Source of the DNA: Escherichia coli
Lineage (GTDB): Bacteria > Pseudomonadota > Gammaproteobacteria > Enterobacterales > Enterobacteriaceae
NCBI RefSeq assembly: GCF_048403405.1
Contig: NZ_CP183129.1
DNA: 64,000 bases
Direction: 5' to 3' (one strand)
The notes beneath the pieces were generated by a model, which was not told the DNA's origin, did no database searches, and saw only the letters and a program-made list of their open reading frames with translations. A program made the translations under genes and the position numbers. Shown piece after piece: positions 23,283 to 33,145 of this stretch. The first letter of the stretch is position 1. Each line of letters begins with the position of its first letter.

Positions 23283-23495
23283 ATGCCTGAACACCATAAG
23301 GTTAGCCTCTTACTCGTTGGAAATCAACACAGGGGGCTGGGAATGCCGCAGAAATATAGATTACTTTCTTTAATAGTGATTTGTTTCACGCTTTTATTTT
23401 TCACCTGGATGATAAGAGATTCACTGTGTGAATTGCATATTAAACAGGGGAGTTATGAGCTGGCGGCATTTTTAGCCTGCAATTTGAAAGAGTAA
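23283..23495 (+). CDS. mokA: mok-type overlapping reading frame of the hokA locus (70 aa)
   Basis: ORF starting 16 bp after the IS150 right end, co-terminal with hokA as in hok/sok-type loci. Confidence 0.45.
   Translation: MPEHHKVSLLLVGNQHRGLGMPQKYRLLSLIVICFTLLFFTWMIRDSLCELHIKQGSYELAAFLACNLKE
23343..23495 (+). CDS. hokA: Hok-family type I toxin (50 aa)
   Basis: MPQKYRLLSLIVICFTLLFFTWMIRDSLCELHIKQGSYELAAFLACNLKE, canonical Hok single-TM peptide. Confidence 0.85.
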   Translation: MPQKYRLLSLIVICFTLLFFTWMIRDSLCELHIKQGSYELAAFLACNLKE

Positions 23496-26737: not shown

Positions 26738-27397
26738 TTACAGCGGGCTTAAGGTAATTTCTACACGGCGGTTTTGCGCCTTACCTTCTGCGGTGCTGTT
26801 GCTGGCGATTGGGTTAGCCGGGCCAAGGCCCTGAGTACGGATGCGGCTGGCGTCCACGCCCTGGGTGATCAACGCGCTGGCAACGGAATCCGCACGCTGC
26901 TGGGAGAGACGCATGTTCAGGTCGTGACCACCCGTGCTGTCGGTATAACCAATCACGTTAACCGCCGTTTTCGGATACTCTTTCAGCACCATTGCCACGC
27001 CGGTCAGGGTGTTAGCGCCTGCCGGTTTCAGGGTCGCGCTGCTGCTGTCGAAGGTCACATTGTTCGGCATATTGAGGATAATGTTATCCCCGCTGCGGGT
27101 TACGCTAACACCAGTGCCGCGCATTTTGTCACGTAGCTTCGCTTCCTGCACATCCATGTAATAACCCACGCCGCCGCCCAGAGCTGCGCCTGCTGCTGCG
27201 CCAATCAGCGCGCCTTTACCGCGATCTTTCTTCGAAGAAGAGAGCGCACCAATACCCGCGCCCACGAGAGAGCCCAGACCTGCGCCAATAGCAGATTTAC
27301 CTGCTTCGCGTTCGCCGGTGTAAGGGTTAGTTGTGCAGCCAGATACCGCCAGAGCGCCACTCACTACTGCGGCAATAAGATAAACACGTTTCTTCAT
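26738..27397 (-). CDS. yiaD: OmpA-domain lipoprotein (219 aa)
   Basis: Lipobox signal peptide, Gly-rich segment, C-terminal OmpA peptidoglycan-binding domain. Confidence 0.85.
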   Translation of the reverse strand: MKKRVYLIAAVVSGALAVSGCTTNPYTGEREAGKSAIGAGLGSLVGAGIGALSSSKKDRGKGALIGAAAGAALGGGVGYYMDVQEAKLRDKMRGTGVSVTRSGDNIILNMPNNVTFDSSSATLKPAGANTLTGVAMVLKEYPKTAVNVIGYTDSTGGHDLNMRLSQQRADSVASALITQGVDASRIRTQGLGPANPIASNSTAEGKAQNRRVEITLSPL

Positions 27398-27549
27398 TGT
27401 TAATCCTTAATAACCTTTTTATTCTTTGCCACGGGTTCCGTGGCGGGAGATTATGCCGCGTGAACATGAAGATTATTCCTGGGAATACTCGGAAATTTGT
27501 AAGTAATATTTAACTGCTCAATACATCTAACCTTTCAGGAGTCTTCGGT

Positions 27550-29883
27550 TTGGCCAACTCATCCTCACGATATTCCGTTCTGACTGCCGCCCACTGGGGG
27601 CCGATGCTGGTTGAAACCGACGGCGAAACCGTGTTTAGCTCGCGTGGCGCGTTAGTCACAGGAATGGAAAACTCCTTGCAGAGCGCGGTTCGCGACCAGG
27701 TTCACAGCAATACGCGGGTACGATTTCCAATGGTGCGCAAAGGCTTTCTCGCGTCACCGGAAAACCCGCAAGGCATTCGTGGGCAGGATGAATTTGTTCG
27801 CGTGAGTTGGGATGAGGCGCTGGATCTTATTCACCAACAACATAAACGCATTCGTGAGGCTTATGGTCCGGCATCGATTTTTGCTGGTTCCTACGGCTGG
27901 CGTTCAAACGGCGTGCTGCATAAGGCCTCGACATTATTACAACGCTATATGGCGCTGGCAGGCGGTTATACCGGGCATCTGGGGGATTATTCGACCGGCG
28001 CGGCACAGGCGATCATGCCGTATGTCGTGGGTGGCAGCGAAGTTTATCAACAGCAAACCAGTTGGCCGCTGGTGCTGGAACATAGCGATGTCGTGGTGCT
28101 GTGGAGTGCTAACCCACTCAATACGCTGAAAATTGCGTGGAATGCATCCGATGAGCAGGGGCTTTCTTACTTTTCTGCACTGCGTGACAGCGGGAAAAAG
28201 CTGATCTGCATTGATCCAATGCGATCGGAAACCGTTGAGTTCTTTGGCGATAAAATGGAGTGGGTGGCACCGCACATGGGCACCGATGTTGCGCTGATGC
28301 TGGGGATCGCCTATACGCTGGTGGAAAATGGTTGGCACGACGAAGCGTTTCTGGCGCGTTGCACCACAGGTTATGCCGTCTTCGTCTCTTATTTGCTGGG
28401 CGAGAGTGACGGAATAGCCAAAACCGCCGAATGGGCGGCAGGGATTTGTGGTATTGGCGCAGCGAAAATCCGCGAGCTGGCGGCTCTTTTCCACCAAAAT
28501 ACCACCATGCTGATGGCTGGCTGGGGAATGCAACGTCAACAGTTTGGCGAGCAAAAGCACTGGATGATCGTCACGCTGGCGGCAATGTTGGGGCAAATCG
28601 GCACACCCGGCGGCGGTTTTGGACTTTCTTACCATTTTGCCAATGGTGGTAACCCCACGCGCCGCGCTGCGGTGCTCTCTTCCATGCAGGGCAGCTTGCC
28701 TGGCTGCACCGATGCGGTAGATAAAATCCCTGTTGCCCGCATTGTTGAAGCACTGGAAAACCCTGGTGGCGCATATCAACACAACGGTATGAACCGACAT
28801 TTCCCGGATATTCGTTTTATCTGGTGGGCGGGCGGTGCCAACTTTACTCATCATCAGGATACCAATCGCCTGATCCGTGCCTGGCAAAAACCGGAGCTGG
28901 TGGTGATCTCTGAATGCTTCTGGACGGCGGCGGCGAAACACGCGGATATCGTTCTGCCTGCGACCACTTCGTTTGAGCGTAATGATCTCACCATGACCGG
29001 CGATTACAGCAATCAGCATCTGGTGCCGATGAAACAAGTGGTGCCGCCACGTTATGAAGCGCGTAATGATTTTGATGTCTTTGCCGAGTTGAGTGAACGT
29101 TGGGAGAAGGGCGGCTATGCGCGGTTTACGGAAGGAAAAAGTGAGCTGCAATGGCTGGAAACGTTTTATAACGTTGCCCGGCAGCGCGGGGCAAGCCAGC
29201 AGGTTGAATTGCCGCCATTTGCTGAGTTCTGGAAAGCCAACCAGTTAATTGAGATGCCGGAAAACCCGGACAGTGAGCGGTTTATTCGCTTCGCCGATTT
29301 TCGCCGCGATCCGCAGGCGCATCCATTAAAAACCGCCAGCGGTAAGATTGAAATATTCTCGCAGCGTATTGCCGATTACGCTTATCCGGATTGCCCTGGG
29401 CATCCAATGTGGCTGGAGCCGGACGAATGGCAGGGCAATGCCGAACCGGAACAGTTGCAGGTACTTTCTGCTCATCCGGCACATCGTCTGCATAGCCAGC
29501 TGAATTACAGTTCTCTGCGCGAATTGTACGCGGTGGCAAATCGTGAGCCTGTCACCATTCATCCTGACGATGCCCAGGCGCGCGGCATACAAGATGGCGA
29601 TATTGTTCGGTTGTGGAACGCACGCGGGCAAATTCTTGCCGGAGCGGTCATTAGCGAGGGAATTAAACCTGGCGTGATTTGTATTCATGAAGGGGCATGG
29701 CCGGATCTGGATTTAACCGCTGACGGTATTTGTAAAAACGGCGCGGTGAACGTTCTGACCAAAGATCTCCCCAGCTCGCGGCTGGGGAATGGCTGTGCGG
29801 GTAATACGGCACTGGCATGGCTGGAAAAATACAACGGTCCGGAACTGACACTTACAGCGTTTGAACCACCGGCCAGCTCATAA
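27550..29883 (+). CDS. bisC: biotin sulfoxide reductase, molybdopterin oxidoreductase (777 aa)
   Basis: 777-aa ORF recognised as BisC (DMSO reductase family). Confidence 0.9.
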
Positions 29884-30292
29884 TCCAGGTGGGTAGTTGG
29901 GTTTCATCCTGCCATGCGCAGTCGACAATGTGAAAACCCTGCGCATGGTAAAAATCTATCGCCGGTTGATTTTTTTGATAAACCTCCAGCATCAGATGGG
30001 GATGGCGCTGCTGCACATACTGCATTAGCGCCTTACCAATACCGCGTCTGACGGCCTTCGGTGCGACAAACATTGCAGCCAGAAATCGGCCTTCCATAAT
30101 GCTGACAAAACCGAGAAGCTTACCGTCTTCTTCCCAGACCCAGTTTTGCGCGTTGGCAAGATAGGCATCCCGCACCAGCGGAATGCAATCACGCCAGTAA
30201 TTCGCTTTTATAAAGGGATGCCCCCAGGTTGTACTTTCCAGCCACAGTTCGAGGATCGCGGGGAGTTCTGAACGTTGCGCTTCCCGAATCAT
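29852..30292 (-). CDS. yiaC: GNAT-family N-acetyltransferase (146 aa)
   Basis: 146-aa ORF; 3' end overlaps the bisC 3' end by 32 bp; overlaps tag stop by 4 bp. Confidence 0.82.
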
Positions 30293-30852
30293 GGTTTATT
30301 TCCCGGATAGCAACAGCAGCCAACCACATGATCATTCACCAGCCCACATGCCTGCATAAAGGAGTAACAGATTGTGGTACCAACAAACTTAAAACCACGC
30401 TTTTTCAAGGCTTTAGATAGAGCGTCGGAGGCGGGCGTAGATGTAGGGATTTCGCTCAACGTTGTGGCTTGTGTCACCTGTGGTTGATGATTGACAAACG
30501 ACCAGACAAAGTCGGCAAACGGTTCGCCGTTCTGTTCCATTTGCAGGTACGCCCGCGCATTACCAATAATTGCCTGAATTTTCCCGCGATGGCGGATAAT
30601 CCCGGCGTCCTGTACCAGTCTTTCGACATCCTCTTCCTGCATTGCAGCCACCTTCACCGGATCGAACTGATGAAAGCTGGCGCGATAGTTTTCGCGTTTT
30701 TTGAGGACGGTGATCCACGATAATCCAGCCTGCTGCCCTTCAAGGCAGATCATTTCGAACAGTTTTTTACTGTCAGTTTCAGGCACGCCCCATTCATTAT
30801 CATGGTAGGCAATATAAAGCGGGTCCTGACTCACCCAGCCGCAACGTTCCAT
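30289..30852 (-). CDS. tag: 3-methyladenine DNA glycosylase I (187 aa)
   Basis: Start at MERCGWVSQDPLYIAYHDNEWG inside a longer ORF; zinc-binding Cys at the C-terminus. Confidence 0.9.
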   Translation of the reverse strand: MERCGWVSQDPLYIAYHDNEWGVPETDSKKLFEMICLEGQQAGLSWITVLKKRENYRASFHQFDPVKVAAMQEEDVERLVQDAGIIRHRGKIQAIIGNARAYLQMEQNGEPFADFVWSFVNHQPQVTQATTLSEIPTSTPASDALSKALKKRGFKFVGTTICYSFMQACGLVNDHVVGCCCYPGNKP

Positions 30853-31009
30853 ACTTTCCCTCGCTATGTACCCGATCGTAAAAATTTCAGCCGCTTTTCT
30901 TGACGCATCGGTGAAAAAGTCAATATTTAATACAGGGCTACTATGCCCGATATCCTTCATACAATGACAATAATATTGCCGAATTCGGCTCTTCCCTGGA
31001 GTCGTGTTA

Positions 31010-31708
31010 ATGATCATAAAAAAAAGCGGTGGTCGCTGGCAGCTAAGCCTGCTGGCGAGTGTGGTAATCAGTGCCTTTTTTCTCAACACAGCTTACGCCT
31101 GGCAACAAGAATATATCGTTGATACGCAACCCGGACATTCCACAGAGCGTTACACCTGGGATAGCGATCATCAACCTGATTACAACGATATTTTGTCGCA
31201 ACGTATTCAAAGTAGCCAAAGGGCGCTGGGACTGGAAGTCAATCTGGCGGAAGAAACCCCTGTGGATGTGACCAGCAGTATGAGTATGGGCTGGAATTTT
31301 CCTTTATATGAACAGGTTACAACCGGCCCGGTCGCGGCATTACATTACGATGGCACAACCACCTCGATGTATAACGAGTTTGGCGACAGTACTACCACGC
31401 TAGCCGATCCGTTATGGCATGCCAGCGTGAGTACCTTAGGCTGGCGTGTTGACTCCCGGCTTGGCGATCTCCGACCCTGGGCGCAAATCAGCTATAACCA
31501 GCAATTTGGCGAGAATATCTGGAAGGCGCAATCAGGCCTGAGCCGGATGACGGCGACAAACCAGAACGGCAACTGGCTGGATGTCACCGTAGGCGCTGAT
31601 ATGTTGCTCAATCAAAATATTGCTGCCTATGCTGCGCTATCTCAGGCAGAAAATACCACTAACAATAGCGACTATCTGTATACGATGGGGGTTAGCGCCA
31701 GATTTTAA
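31010..31708 (+). CDS. yhjY: YhjY, autotransporter beta-domain-like outer membrane protein (232 aa)
   Basis: Signal peptide followed by an aromatic-rich beta region ending in F; start chosen as MIIKKSGG. Confidence 0.7.
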   Translation: MIIKKSGGRWQLSLLASVVISAFFLNTAYAWQQEYIVDTQPGHSTERYTWDSDHQPDYNDILSQRIQSSQRALGLEVNLAEETPVDVTSSMSMGWNFPLYEQVTTGPVAALHYDGTTTSMYNEFGDSTTTLADPLWHASVSTLGWRVDSRLGDLRPWAQISYNQQFGENIWKAQSGLSRMTATNQNGNWLDVTVGADMLLNQNIAAYAALSQAENTTNNSDYLYTMGVSARF

Positions 31709-31936
31709 CGTTATAGATACAATTGAAACCATTGGATAACAACAGTTGTGGCGATAGTGGGTGCTAACTTACTAAATAATAAATTTGGTGAATAATTGTC
31801 GAGTCATTCATTCCTGAACTAATGCATTTCATTCCGTTCTGATGGCATTTCATGCCGTTTTTCCCCAGGCATAAAGTGCACTTCGTTATGGTTGTCAGCA
31901 GAGATTTTTCCTTTTTATTACTGCAGGAATACTGCC

Positions 31937-33145
31937 ATGACACCTTCAAATTATCAGCGTACCCGCTGGTTGACACTCATCGGTACTATCATTACCCAGT
32001 TTGCGCTGGGGTCGGTTTATACCTGGAGCCTGTTTAACGGCGCGCTTTCTGCCAAGCTGGATGCGCCGGTAAGCCAGGTCGCTTTCTCTTTCGGCTTGTT
32101 AAGTCTGGGGCTGGCAATTTCATCTTCTGTTGCGGGGAAATTACAGGAACGTTTTGGCGTTAAACGCGTCACTATGGCTTCCGGCATTTTGCTGGGATTA
32201 GGCTTCTTCCTGACAGCGCATTCTGACAACCTGATGATGCTGTGGTTAAGCGCCGGTGTGCTGGTCGGTCTGGCGGATGGCGCGGGTTACCTGCTGACGC
32301 TCTCTAACTGCGTGAAGTGGTTCCCGGAGCGTAAAGGTCTGATCTCCGCGTTCGCTATCGGTTCTTATGGTCTGGGTAGCCTGGGTTTCAAATTTATCGA
32401 CACGCAGCTGCTCGAAACGGTGGGTCTGGAAAAAACTTTTGTGATTTGGGGAGCGATTGCGCTGGTGATGATTGTTTTCGGCGCAACGTTAATGAAAGAC
32501 GCACCAAAACAGGAAGTGAAAACCAGCAATGGTGTGGTGGAGAAAGATTACACGCTGGCAGAGTCAATGCGTAAACCGCAGTACTGGATGTTAGCGGTAA
32601 TGTTCCTGACTGCCTGCATGAGCGGCCTGTACGTGATTGGGGTAGCGAAAGATATCGCCCAAAGTCTGGCACACCTTGATGTGGTTTCCGCAGCCAATGC
32701 AGTCACTGTTATTTCCATCGCCAACCTTTCAGGTCGTCTGGTTCTGGGGATACTGTCTGACAAAATCGCCCGAATCCGTGTTATCACCATTGGTCAGGTG
32801 ATTTCGCTGGTGGGTATGGCGGCCCTGCTGTTTGCACCATTGAATGCAGTGACGTTCTTTGCAGCGATTGCCTGCGTGGCGTTTAACTTTGGCGGCACCA
32901 TTACCGTTTTCCCGTCACTGGTCAGTGAGTTCTTCGGCCTCAATAACCTGGCGAAAAACTACGGTGTGATTTATCTCGGTTTCGGTATCGGCAGCATTTG
33001 TGGGTCGATTATCGCCTCACTGTTTGGCGGCTTCTATGTGACGTTCTATGTCATCTTTGCTCTGCTGATTCTGTCATTGGCGCTATCTACGACGATTCGC
33101 CAGCCAGAGCAGAAAGTATTGCGTGAGGCGCATGGCTCCCTTTAA
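31937..33145 (+). CDS. yhjX: MFS transporter (402 aa)
   Basis: 12-TM MFS architecture; start at MTPSNYQRTRW. Confidence 0.85.
   Translation: MTPSNYQRTRWLTLIGTIITQFALGSVYTWSLFNGALSAKLDAPVSQVAFSFGLLSLGLAISSSVAGKLQERFGVKRVTMASGILLGLGFFLTAHSDNLMMLWLSAGVLVGLADGAGYLLTLSNCVKWFPERKGLISAFAIGSYGLGSLGFKFIDTQLLETVGLEKTFVIWGAIALVMIVFGATLMKDAPKQEVKTSNGVVEKDYTLAESMRKPQYWMLAVMFLTACMSGLYVIGVAKDIAQSLAHLDVVSAANAVTVISIANLSGRLVLGILSDKIARIRVITIGQVISLVGMAALLFAPLNAVTFFAAIACVAFNFGGTITVFPSLVSEFFGLNNLAKNYGVIYLGFGIGSICGSIIASLFGGFYVTFYVIFALLILSLALSTTIRQPEQKVLREAHGSL

Follow-up and report, generated by a model that had tools for sequence, protein, structure and literature searches.

Does the tail-to-tail arrangement of bisC and yiaC couple the expression of the two genes, or are they merely packed so closely that each ends inside the other? 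The question arises in a 64,000-nucleotide stretch of an Escherichia coli genome (contig NZ_CP183129.1; the whole stretch is called the window here), in which the two coding sequences converge and share their 3' ends. An answer should account for the reality and age of the overlap, for what holds its sequence constant, and for the fate of the two transcripts that run through it.

Coordinates and reality of the overlap

The locus is defined by the following features.

27550..29883, plus strand: bisC coding sequence, biotin sulfoxide reductase, 777 aa, TTG start, TAA stop (open reading frame list, RefSeq).
29852..30292, minus strand: yiaC coding sequence, GNAT lysine acetyltransferase, 146 aa (open reading frame list, RefSeq).
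30289..30852, minus strand: tag coding sequence, lying upstream of yiaC and encoding 3-methyladenine DNA glycosylase I (position carried over from the RefSeq annotation).
29852..29883, both strands: convergent overlap of the bisC and yiaC coding sequences, interpreted as dual coding (open reading frame list, RefSeq, conservation over 13 loci).

In the open reading frame list, plus-strand bisC and minus-strand yiaC have 32 bp in common at their 3' ends. Both stop codons are unambiguous, with the TAA of bisC at 29881-29883 and that of yiaC (reverse complement TTA) at 29852-29854. An identical 32-bp overlap is found in the RefSeq annotations of strain TUM14771, K-12 W3110 and MG1655, where yiaC occupies 3,713,652-3,714,092 and bisC 3,714,061-3,716,394; over a test kilobase the window is 100% identical to TUM14771 and 97.4% identical to K-12. 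The convergent overlap described in the initial annotation is thus borne out, and its remark that no terminator lies between the genes is trivially true since there is zero space between them. Because 4 nt (ATGA, 30289-30292) are shared by the tag stop and the yiaC start, tag and yiaC probably form one transcription unit.

Many long convergent overlaps (>60 bp) have turned out to be misannotated 3' extensions (Palleja et al. 2008, PMC2478687), and it may be asked whether one of the stops is wrong here as well, through a frameshift or a 3' end drawn too long, which would make the overlap spurious. Stop codons do not depend on prediction, and 5,419 of the 5,426 complete genomes of E. coli contain the region with the same frames and stops, as do at least eight genera. 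The proteins themselves also have the expected lengths. BisC carries the Pfam domains Molybdopterin and Molydop_binding, and in alignments with solved DMSO/TMAO reductases (DorA, TorZ; 1EU1, 1DMS, 7L5I) its C-terminus comes within 2-4 residues of their ends. YiaC matches the GNAT families and has YjaB (147 aa) as its nearest solved relative. A homologue search for YiaC gave 199 sequences at E <= 1e-10. Homologues across the Enterobacteriaceae are 146-148 aa long. Distant homologues measure 140-151 aa and align through residue ~140; in them M138 never varies, W140 is conserved in at least 90%, and the 1-13 residues beyond are variable. The conserved core of YiaC itself extends 11 nt into bisC. 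Since both proteins end normally for their families, neither gene is artificially extended; both overlapping frames are real genes by homology. Family lengths and conservation together rule out a misannotated 3' extension, the comparative data refute an artefact, and we assign this explanation a practically negligible probability. The overlap is real, conserved across enteric bacteria, ordinary, and previously catalogued.

Conservation, age and dual coding

The overlap was followed through 13 loci, of which the five from other Escherichia lineages were obtained by scanning contigs with strict YiaC peptide patterns and those from other genera by a homologue search followed by retrieval of the encoding contigs. 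It measures 32 bp in 11 loci (the five Escherichia lineages, Salmonella, Citrobacter, Raoultella/Klebsiella, Enterobacter and one more Enterobacteriaceae isolate) and 38 bp in the remaining two (Kosakonia and Lelliottia). At least eight genera are spanned, and YiaC identity outside Escherichia is 56-62%. On this comparative evidence the overlap is an old one. Two more distant relatives with 41-44% YiaC identity keep the tag-yiaC pair, with no bisC downstream and only a 470-550 nt spacer. This would be consistent with an event in some ancestor of the Enterobacteriaceae that placed bisC against the tail of the tag-yiaC unit, but the choice between gain of bisC beside yiaC and its loss in the outgroups depends on these two contexts. 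The idea that the overlap is longer than chance would allow was considered and rejected. Of the codons in the yiaC frame antisense to bisC, 2.2% are stops, and a run of nine stop-free codons has a probability of 0.83. Once the genes abut, the length of the overlap is within chance expectation.

The two reading frames are placed such that first codon positions lie opposite each other, with bisC positions 2 and 3 opposite yiaC positions 3 and 2. Among the 13 loci, 21 of the 32 overlap columns (66%) are invariant, compared with 74 of 142 (52%) and 61 of 147 (41%) in the flanks. Third positions of bisC are invariant in 3 of 11 cases inside the overlap and in 2 of 47 outside it. This signature of dual selection comes from a small sample of 13 sequences and 32 columns; within that sample, purifying selection is visible on both frames. 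The per-column table further indicates that the dominant frame switches at approximately 29873-29876, which divides the overlap into two parts.

29852..29875, plus strand: part dominated by BisC, in which L768-T-A-F-(E/D)-P-P-A775 is invariant (13-locus column table).
29873..29884, minus strand: part dominated by YiaC, in which the codons for W140, M138 and I137 of the last GNAT strand are invariant (13-locus column table).

In the first part all variable columns are bisC third positions, which equal yiaC second positions, and for this reason the YiaC tail from P141 to L146 varies. Its last six residues read, among others, PVVQTL, QADQTP or QVDQTR. In the second part it is BisC that varies, with S or N as its penultimate residue and S, P or A as its last. 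Read on the opposite strand, C-TTA-C in the Leu-Thr codons of bisC supplies the yiaC stop. In Kosakonia and Lelliottia bisC has CTG in place of CTT; YiaC therefore reads on for two more codons and the overlap grows to 38 bp. As for bisC, its stop (TAA or TGA) is contained within ATT-ATG or ATC-ATG of yiaC.

These patterns suggest how the shared sequence is held in place. The conserved C-terminal strand of BisC (LTAFD/EPPA) would dictate the left 24 nt, and the last six residues of YiaC would then be a readout of the antisense frame that continues until the Leu-Thr codons of bisC (CTT ACN) happen to read TAA. The last GNAT strand of YiaC (I-M-x-W) would dictate the remaining ~10 nt and with them the place of the bisC stop. 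Each protein would thereby have its dispensable extreme tail encoded opposite the constrained end of its partner, and the overlap would be frozen because each stop sits in sequence that the partner gene cannot change. Judged from the alignments, the overlap is true dual coding, and this could account for the conservation without selection at the RNA level. Nevertheless, coding constraint and selection for an antisense interaction are inseparable here, and the exact family-wide conservation could reflect either.

Fate of the convergent transcripts

Any full-length BisC or YiaC mRNA contains the 32 nt, which makes antisense complementarity of the two transcripts a logical necessity. Functional 3' ends cannot precede the overlap, because each coding sequence runs through it, and both mRNAs must extend into the partner gene, as there is no room for a terminator. 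Where they end was approached with a consensus scan for terminators, RNA folding and published 3'-end data, and the following elements were considered.

29768..29788, minus strand: 8-bp GC-rich hairpin, 64 nt past the yiaC stop, with a poor U tract (AGAUCUUUGG) (scan, folding).
29912..29948, plus strand: 10-bp perfect inverted repeat (CCATGCGCAG/CTGCGCATGG) with a 17-nt loop, 29 nt past the bisC stop and inside yiaC.
29600..29851, minus strand: read-through RNA of tag-yiaC, antisense to the 3' end of bisC (Rho region peak of Adams et al. 2021, coordinate mapping).
29864..29886, both strands: RNase III duplex captured by p19 (AUUAUGAGCUGGCCGGUGGUU / CCACCGGCCAGCUCAUAAUCC) (PMC7373196 Table S3, exact mapping).

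One possibility is that intrinsic terminators are hidden in the coding sequences, the hairpin at 29768-29788 serving yiaC and the repeat at 29912-29948, together with a T7 run at 29968-29974, serving bisC. Antisense RNA would then be confined to ~100 nt on each side. Both stems are predicted by folding and are perfect inverted repeats in E. coli, and the minus-strand scan match at 29789-29767 is the hairpin located 64 nt past the yiaC stop. However, the scan reported seven terminator-like sites in 4.5 kb, no more than the 5.9 +/- 2.5 found in shuffled sequences, and folding past the stops gave unexceptional z-scores of -1.9 and -1.0. As for the U tracts, they are either poor or out of place: none directly follows the 29912-29948 repeat, and the sole AU-flanked hairpin, at 29950-29974, has a weak stem and a T7 run that is specific to E. 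coli. Neither scan nor folding revealed a canonical intrinsic terminator past either stop inside the partner gene, and the consensus scan found no bidirectional terminator of the A-tract/GC-hairpin/U-tract type at the junction.

Comparison between genera also weakens the case for hidden terminators. Pairing in the 29768-29788 hairpin is broken in Citrobacter, Raoultella and Kosakonia, and only 6-8 of the 10 pairs of the 29912-29948 repeat are present in Citrobacter, Enterobacter, Lelliottia and Kosakonia. Salmonella shows an apparent compensatory change in this repeat (Q to L plus C to S), which we put down to chance, given that the pairing is disrupted in other genera. Neither hairpin being kept across genera, a conserved RNA element was rejected; a search of positions 27000-32000 against Rfam gave zero matches at E <= 1. 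The curated Term-seq tables of Adams et al. 2021 (PMC7815308) contain no 3' end at 3,713,8xx-3,714,3xx, the TERMITe supplements have no entry for bisC or yiaC, and the drop in coverage that Adams et al. do report is sensitive to bicyclomycin and lies ~250 nt downstream of yiaC. Hidden intrinsic terminators are thus unlikely, and the 29768-29788 hairpin is at best a weak terminator or a 3'-end stabiliser.

The drop just mentioned belongs to a Rho termination region listed with best coordinate 3,714,344 on the plus strand of MG1655 and the label 'antisense: bisC' (Adams et al. 2021, eLife, PMC7815308, Supplementary file 2). This coordinate corresponds to position ~29600 of the window, 252 nt past the yiaC stop, a coarse location as it derives from 800-nt windows. 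Without bicyclomycin (BCM) the coverage was 90 upstream and 23 downstream, and with it 60 upstream and 112 downstream, giving a Rho score of 7.3 with p = 5.5e-14. The minus-strand RNA between 29851 and 29574 is C-rich and G-poor, with raw C/G ratios of 1.3-1.9. For tag-yiaC we thus have both read-through that is raised by bicyclomycin, from the literature, and an untranslated, C-rich and G-poor RNA. The tag-yiaC transcript, no longer translated past the yiaC stop, would continue as C-rich RNA and be halted by Rho a few hundred nucleotides inside bisC. A role of Rho as the terminator had not been foreseen in the initial annotation. The same table has many 'antisense' Rho entries (PMC7815308), among them those for dppF, yiaF and yiaA, which are partners in the neighbouring convergent pairs yhjV-dppF, ghrB-yiaF and wecH-yiaA.

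A possible trace of pairing between the two RNAs is listed by Huang et al. 2020 (mBio, PMC7373196, Table S3), who captured with p19 a 21-bp RNase III duplex that they labelled 'bisC yiaC'. It maps to MG1655 3,714,058-3,714,080, in the overlap, and ends 3 nt past the bisC stop. The duplex has 2-nt overhangs and was represented by 184 + 90 reads (2.2 + 1.1 RPM). A level of 1 RPM or more is reached by 87% of genes in their data, which places this duplex near the genome-wide background, and it is outside the 301 (E) and 383 (S) abundant clusters (PMC7373196). The complementary 3' ends would pair occasionally and be cut by RNase III. Data from an rnc mutant on bisC or yiaC were not found in the literature.

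With ExcludonFinder, yiaC-bisC was placed among 165 convergent excludons, detected in at least 50% of 58 transcriptomes (NAR 2025, PMC12288877). This listing, the Rho region and the p19 duplex all indicate that bisC and yiaC transcripts from both strands overlap in vivo. The earlier proposal that the transcripts are mutually antisense is therefore supported, by the ExcludonFinder listing and the Rho region antisense to bisC as well as by logic. For the RNase III-type processing that it allowed for, the duplex in the overlap is a candidate product at a low level of 1-2 RPM, and the transcriptional interference that it also allowed for is putative. The antisense RNA by-products are weak, and any regulatory importance is putative. 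Most of this is already known: the overlap is present in every E. coli annotation, and the transcript overlap and the Rho and RNase III signals have been published.

Gene packing, regulation and related systems

In view of the above, the best explanation is probably that two unrelated genes became fixed long ago in a tail-to-tail arrangement, an ordinary by-product of gene packing and not a dedicated regulatory device. Its antisense effects would be mostly a tolerated by-product, because both units are lowly expressed and the pattern is prevalent genome-wide, and they may have at most a small effect on the output of either gene.

Alternatively, the pair could be a functional excludon, in which the overlap has been selected and bisC and tag-yiaC antagonize each other through collision of RNA polymerases, cleavage of the duplex by RNase III, or both. 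A sulfoxide-repair enzyme would then be coupled to an operon for DNA repair and acetylation. The pair is part of the E. coli 'excludome', whose members are deemed potentially regulatory by the authors (PMC12288877). The RNase III duplex maps to the overlap (PMC7373196), antisense read-through of ~250 nt into bisC is documented (PMC7815308), and the arrangement is kept across the family. The last point loses its force if dual coding fully explains the conservation, and variation is indeed confined to sites at which one of the two proteins can accommodate it. The duplex, at 1-2 RPM, is no abundant cluster in a dataset where most genes reach 1 RPM (PMC7373196), and coverage at the Rho site is low, with 90 reads per 800 nt (PMC7815308). 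Moreover, 276 of 370 convergent operons (75%) behave alike in that their transcripts overlap, with a mean of 286 nt (Conway 2014, PMC4161252), and the literature search turned up no anticorrelation of bisC and yiaC expression and no phenotype. We therefore regard a functional excludon as rather unlikely. Still less probable, and in our view very unlikely, is that the frozen overlap is also kept for a fixed ratio tuned by RNase III and Rho, or for mutual antagonism, between BisC and Tag-YiaC. If this were so, two damage-response functions would be hard-wired to each other by antisense coupling throughout the family: biotin and methionine sulfoxide repair by BisC, and alkylation repair with lysine acylation by Tag-YiaC.

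The importance of the locus for discovery is small. It is a teaching example in which the free tail of each protein is written on the constrained end of its partner and both stops are frozen family-wide. It also carries a warning for genetics, as a naive deletion of bisC truncates YiaC and a naive deletion of yiaC truncates BisC; the engineered strain BE104 retains the last 40 nt of bisC. Finally, it offers a test case, at low expression, of whether obligatory 3' duplexes have any consequence.

Convergent overlaps of this kind are not rare. E. coli has 75 convergent pairs with overlapping coding sequences (Huvet and Stumpf 2014, PMC4161906), and the six convergent pairs in the annotated surrounding 50 kb have spacings of +86, +29, -32, +49, -24 and +41 nt. 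Judging from the 311-nt example in a preprint, an overlap of 32 bp (2 mod 3) would belong to the 'phase 1' class, to which nearly half of the convergent overlaps longer than 4 nt are assigned.

Several known systems can be compared with this locus. Bidirectional intrinsic terminators, described by SEnd-seq (Liu laboratory; 10.1101/2022.10.23.513370), occur in the same setting of convergent genes with little or no intergenic space, but the element of A-tract, GC hairpin and U-tract is lacking at bisC-yiaC. Rho-dependent antisense termination (Adams 2021, PMC7815308) agrees in showing a bicyclomycin-sensitive drop past the yiaC stop and a C-rich, G-poor antisense RNA; no difference is known at yiaC, where the position is only coarsely resolved. 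Excludons (PMC4161252, PMC12288877) likewise have complementary convergent 3' ends, yiaC-bisC is listed as one, and an RNase III duplex is on record. They are, however, defined by mutual exclusion of expression, a property that is only putative for bisC-yiaC, and here the transcript overlap is made obligatory by the overlap of the coding sequences, not by a long UTR or a leaky terminator.

The locus also matches the conserved convergent overlapping pairs (Rogozin et al. 2002; PMC2478687; PMC4161906), in which opposite-strand genes supported by homology share their 3' ends. Like these, the bisC-yiaC overlap is shorter than 60 bp, occurs in multiple species and can be explained by movement of stop codons. 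Its conservation reaches beyond the 'very close species' that are typical of long convergent overlaps (PMC2478687). Nothing essential distinguishes bisC-yiaC from these conserved pairs (PMC2478687, PMC4161906), among which it illustrates reciprocal constraint cleanly.

Antisense RNA and antisense reading frames within bisC

Besides the RNase III duplex that lies inside the 32-bp overlap of bisC and yiaC, Table S3 of Huang et al. 2020 (PMC7373196) contains a second p19-captured duplex in the middle of bisC, recorded with 261 and 170 reads. This duplex was mapped to window positions 28755-28777, and the overlap lies about 1.1 kb farther downstream. Some antisense RNA is therefore present far past the Rho-dependent termination region near 29600. 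The strand antisense to bisC also carries a long open frame:

27937-29151, minus strand: open frame of 404 aa, antisense and within bisC

The stop frequency in the three antisense frames of bisC is 1.4-3.9% per codon, and long stop-free antisense frames are a trait of this gene. There is no evidence that the 404-aa frame is a gene.

Hairpins and a T run beyond the bisC stop codon

Within yiaC, a perfect inverted repeat of 10 bp is present at 29912-29948, its arms being formed by the codons for H-A-Q and C-A-W. In Salmonella, two non-synonymous changes that complement each other (Q to L and C to S) leave the repeat perfectly paired, but the pairing is broken in Citrobacter, Enterobacter, Lelliottia and Kosakonia, where 6-8 of the 10 pairs are left. 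The repeat, including the paired changes in Salmonella, is probably a coincidence. Two further elements lie slightly farther into yiaC:

29950-29974: weak AU-rich hairpin ahead of the T7 run
29968-29974: T7 run, the reverse reading of the yiaC codons Q-K-N, which together with the hairpin lies some 70-90 nt past the bisC stop

The T7 run is limited to E. coli and its closest relative, and the T runs of other genera are interrupted. The hairpin and T7 run might serve bisC as a weak, lineage-specific terminator.

Gene neighbourhood at the two ends of yiaC

In more distant relatives (L016-L019, 3945-4510; YiaC identity 41-44%) no gene is called in the 470-550 nt that follow glyQS-tag-yiaC, with yiaD or a ghrB-like gene farther along. 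As bisC is absent beside yiaC in these loci, either the Enterobacteriaceae lineage gained it by insertion or these relatives lost it. A simple scan of the 470-550-nt spacer after yiaC detected no convincing terminator. E. coli BE104 (NZ_CP040643.1; locus L021, 3764-4009) carries a bisC deletion that spares the first ~150 nt, and the annotation calls the remnant a partial pseudogene. Its sequence matches the window again from 29844 on, which leaves the last 40 nt of bisC in place and yiaC intact. This looks like an engineered deletion that was planned around the overlap.

At its other end yiaC overlaps tag, in Escherichia (tag of 187 aa) by the 4 nt ATGA at window positions 30289-30292. The co-directional overlap is called at 20-23 nt, with a tag of 192-193 aa, in Salmonella, Citrobacter, Raoultella, Enterobacter, Kosakonia and Lelliottia:

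3501-3523 in L008-L011, L013 and L014: tag-yiaC overlap outside Escherichia, as called
3501-3520 in L012: the same overlap, as called

Together with the bisC-yiaC overlap, this means that both ends of yiaC are overlapped in most of the family.

The window holds another convergent overlap of coding sequences, at 23472-23495, where 24 nt are common to hokA and a hypothetical gene of 23 aa. This is probably the pair named ysaE-hokA by ExcludonFinder (PMC12288877).
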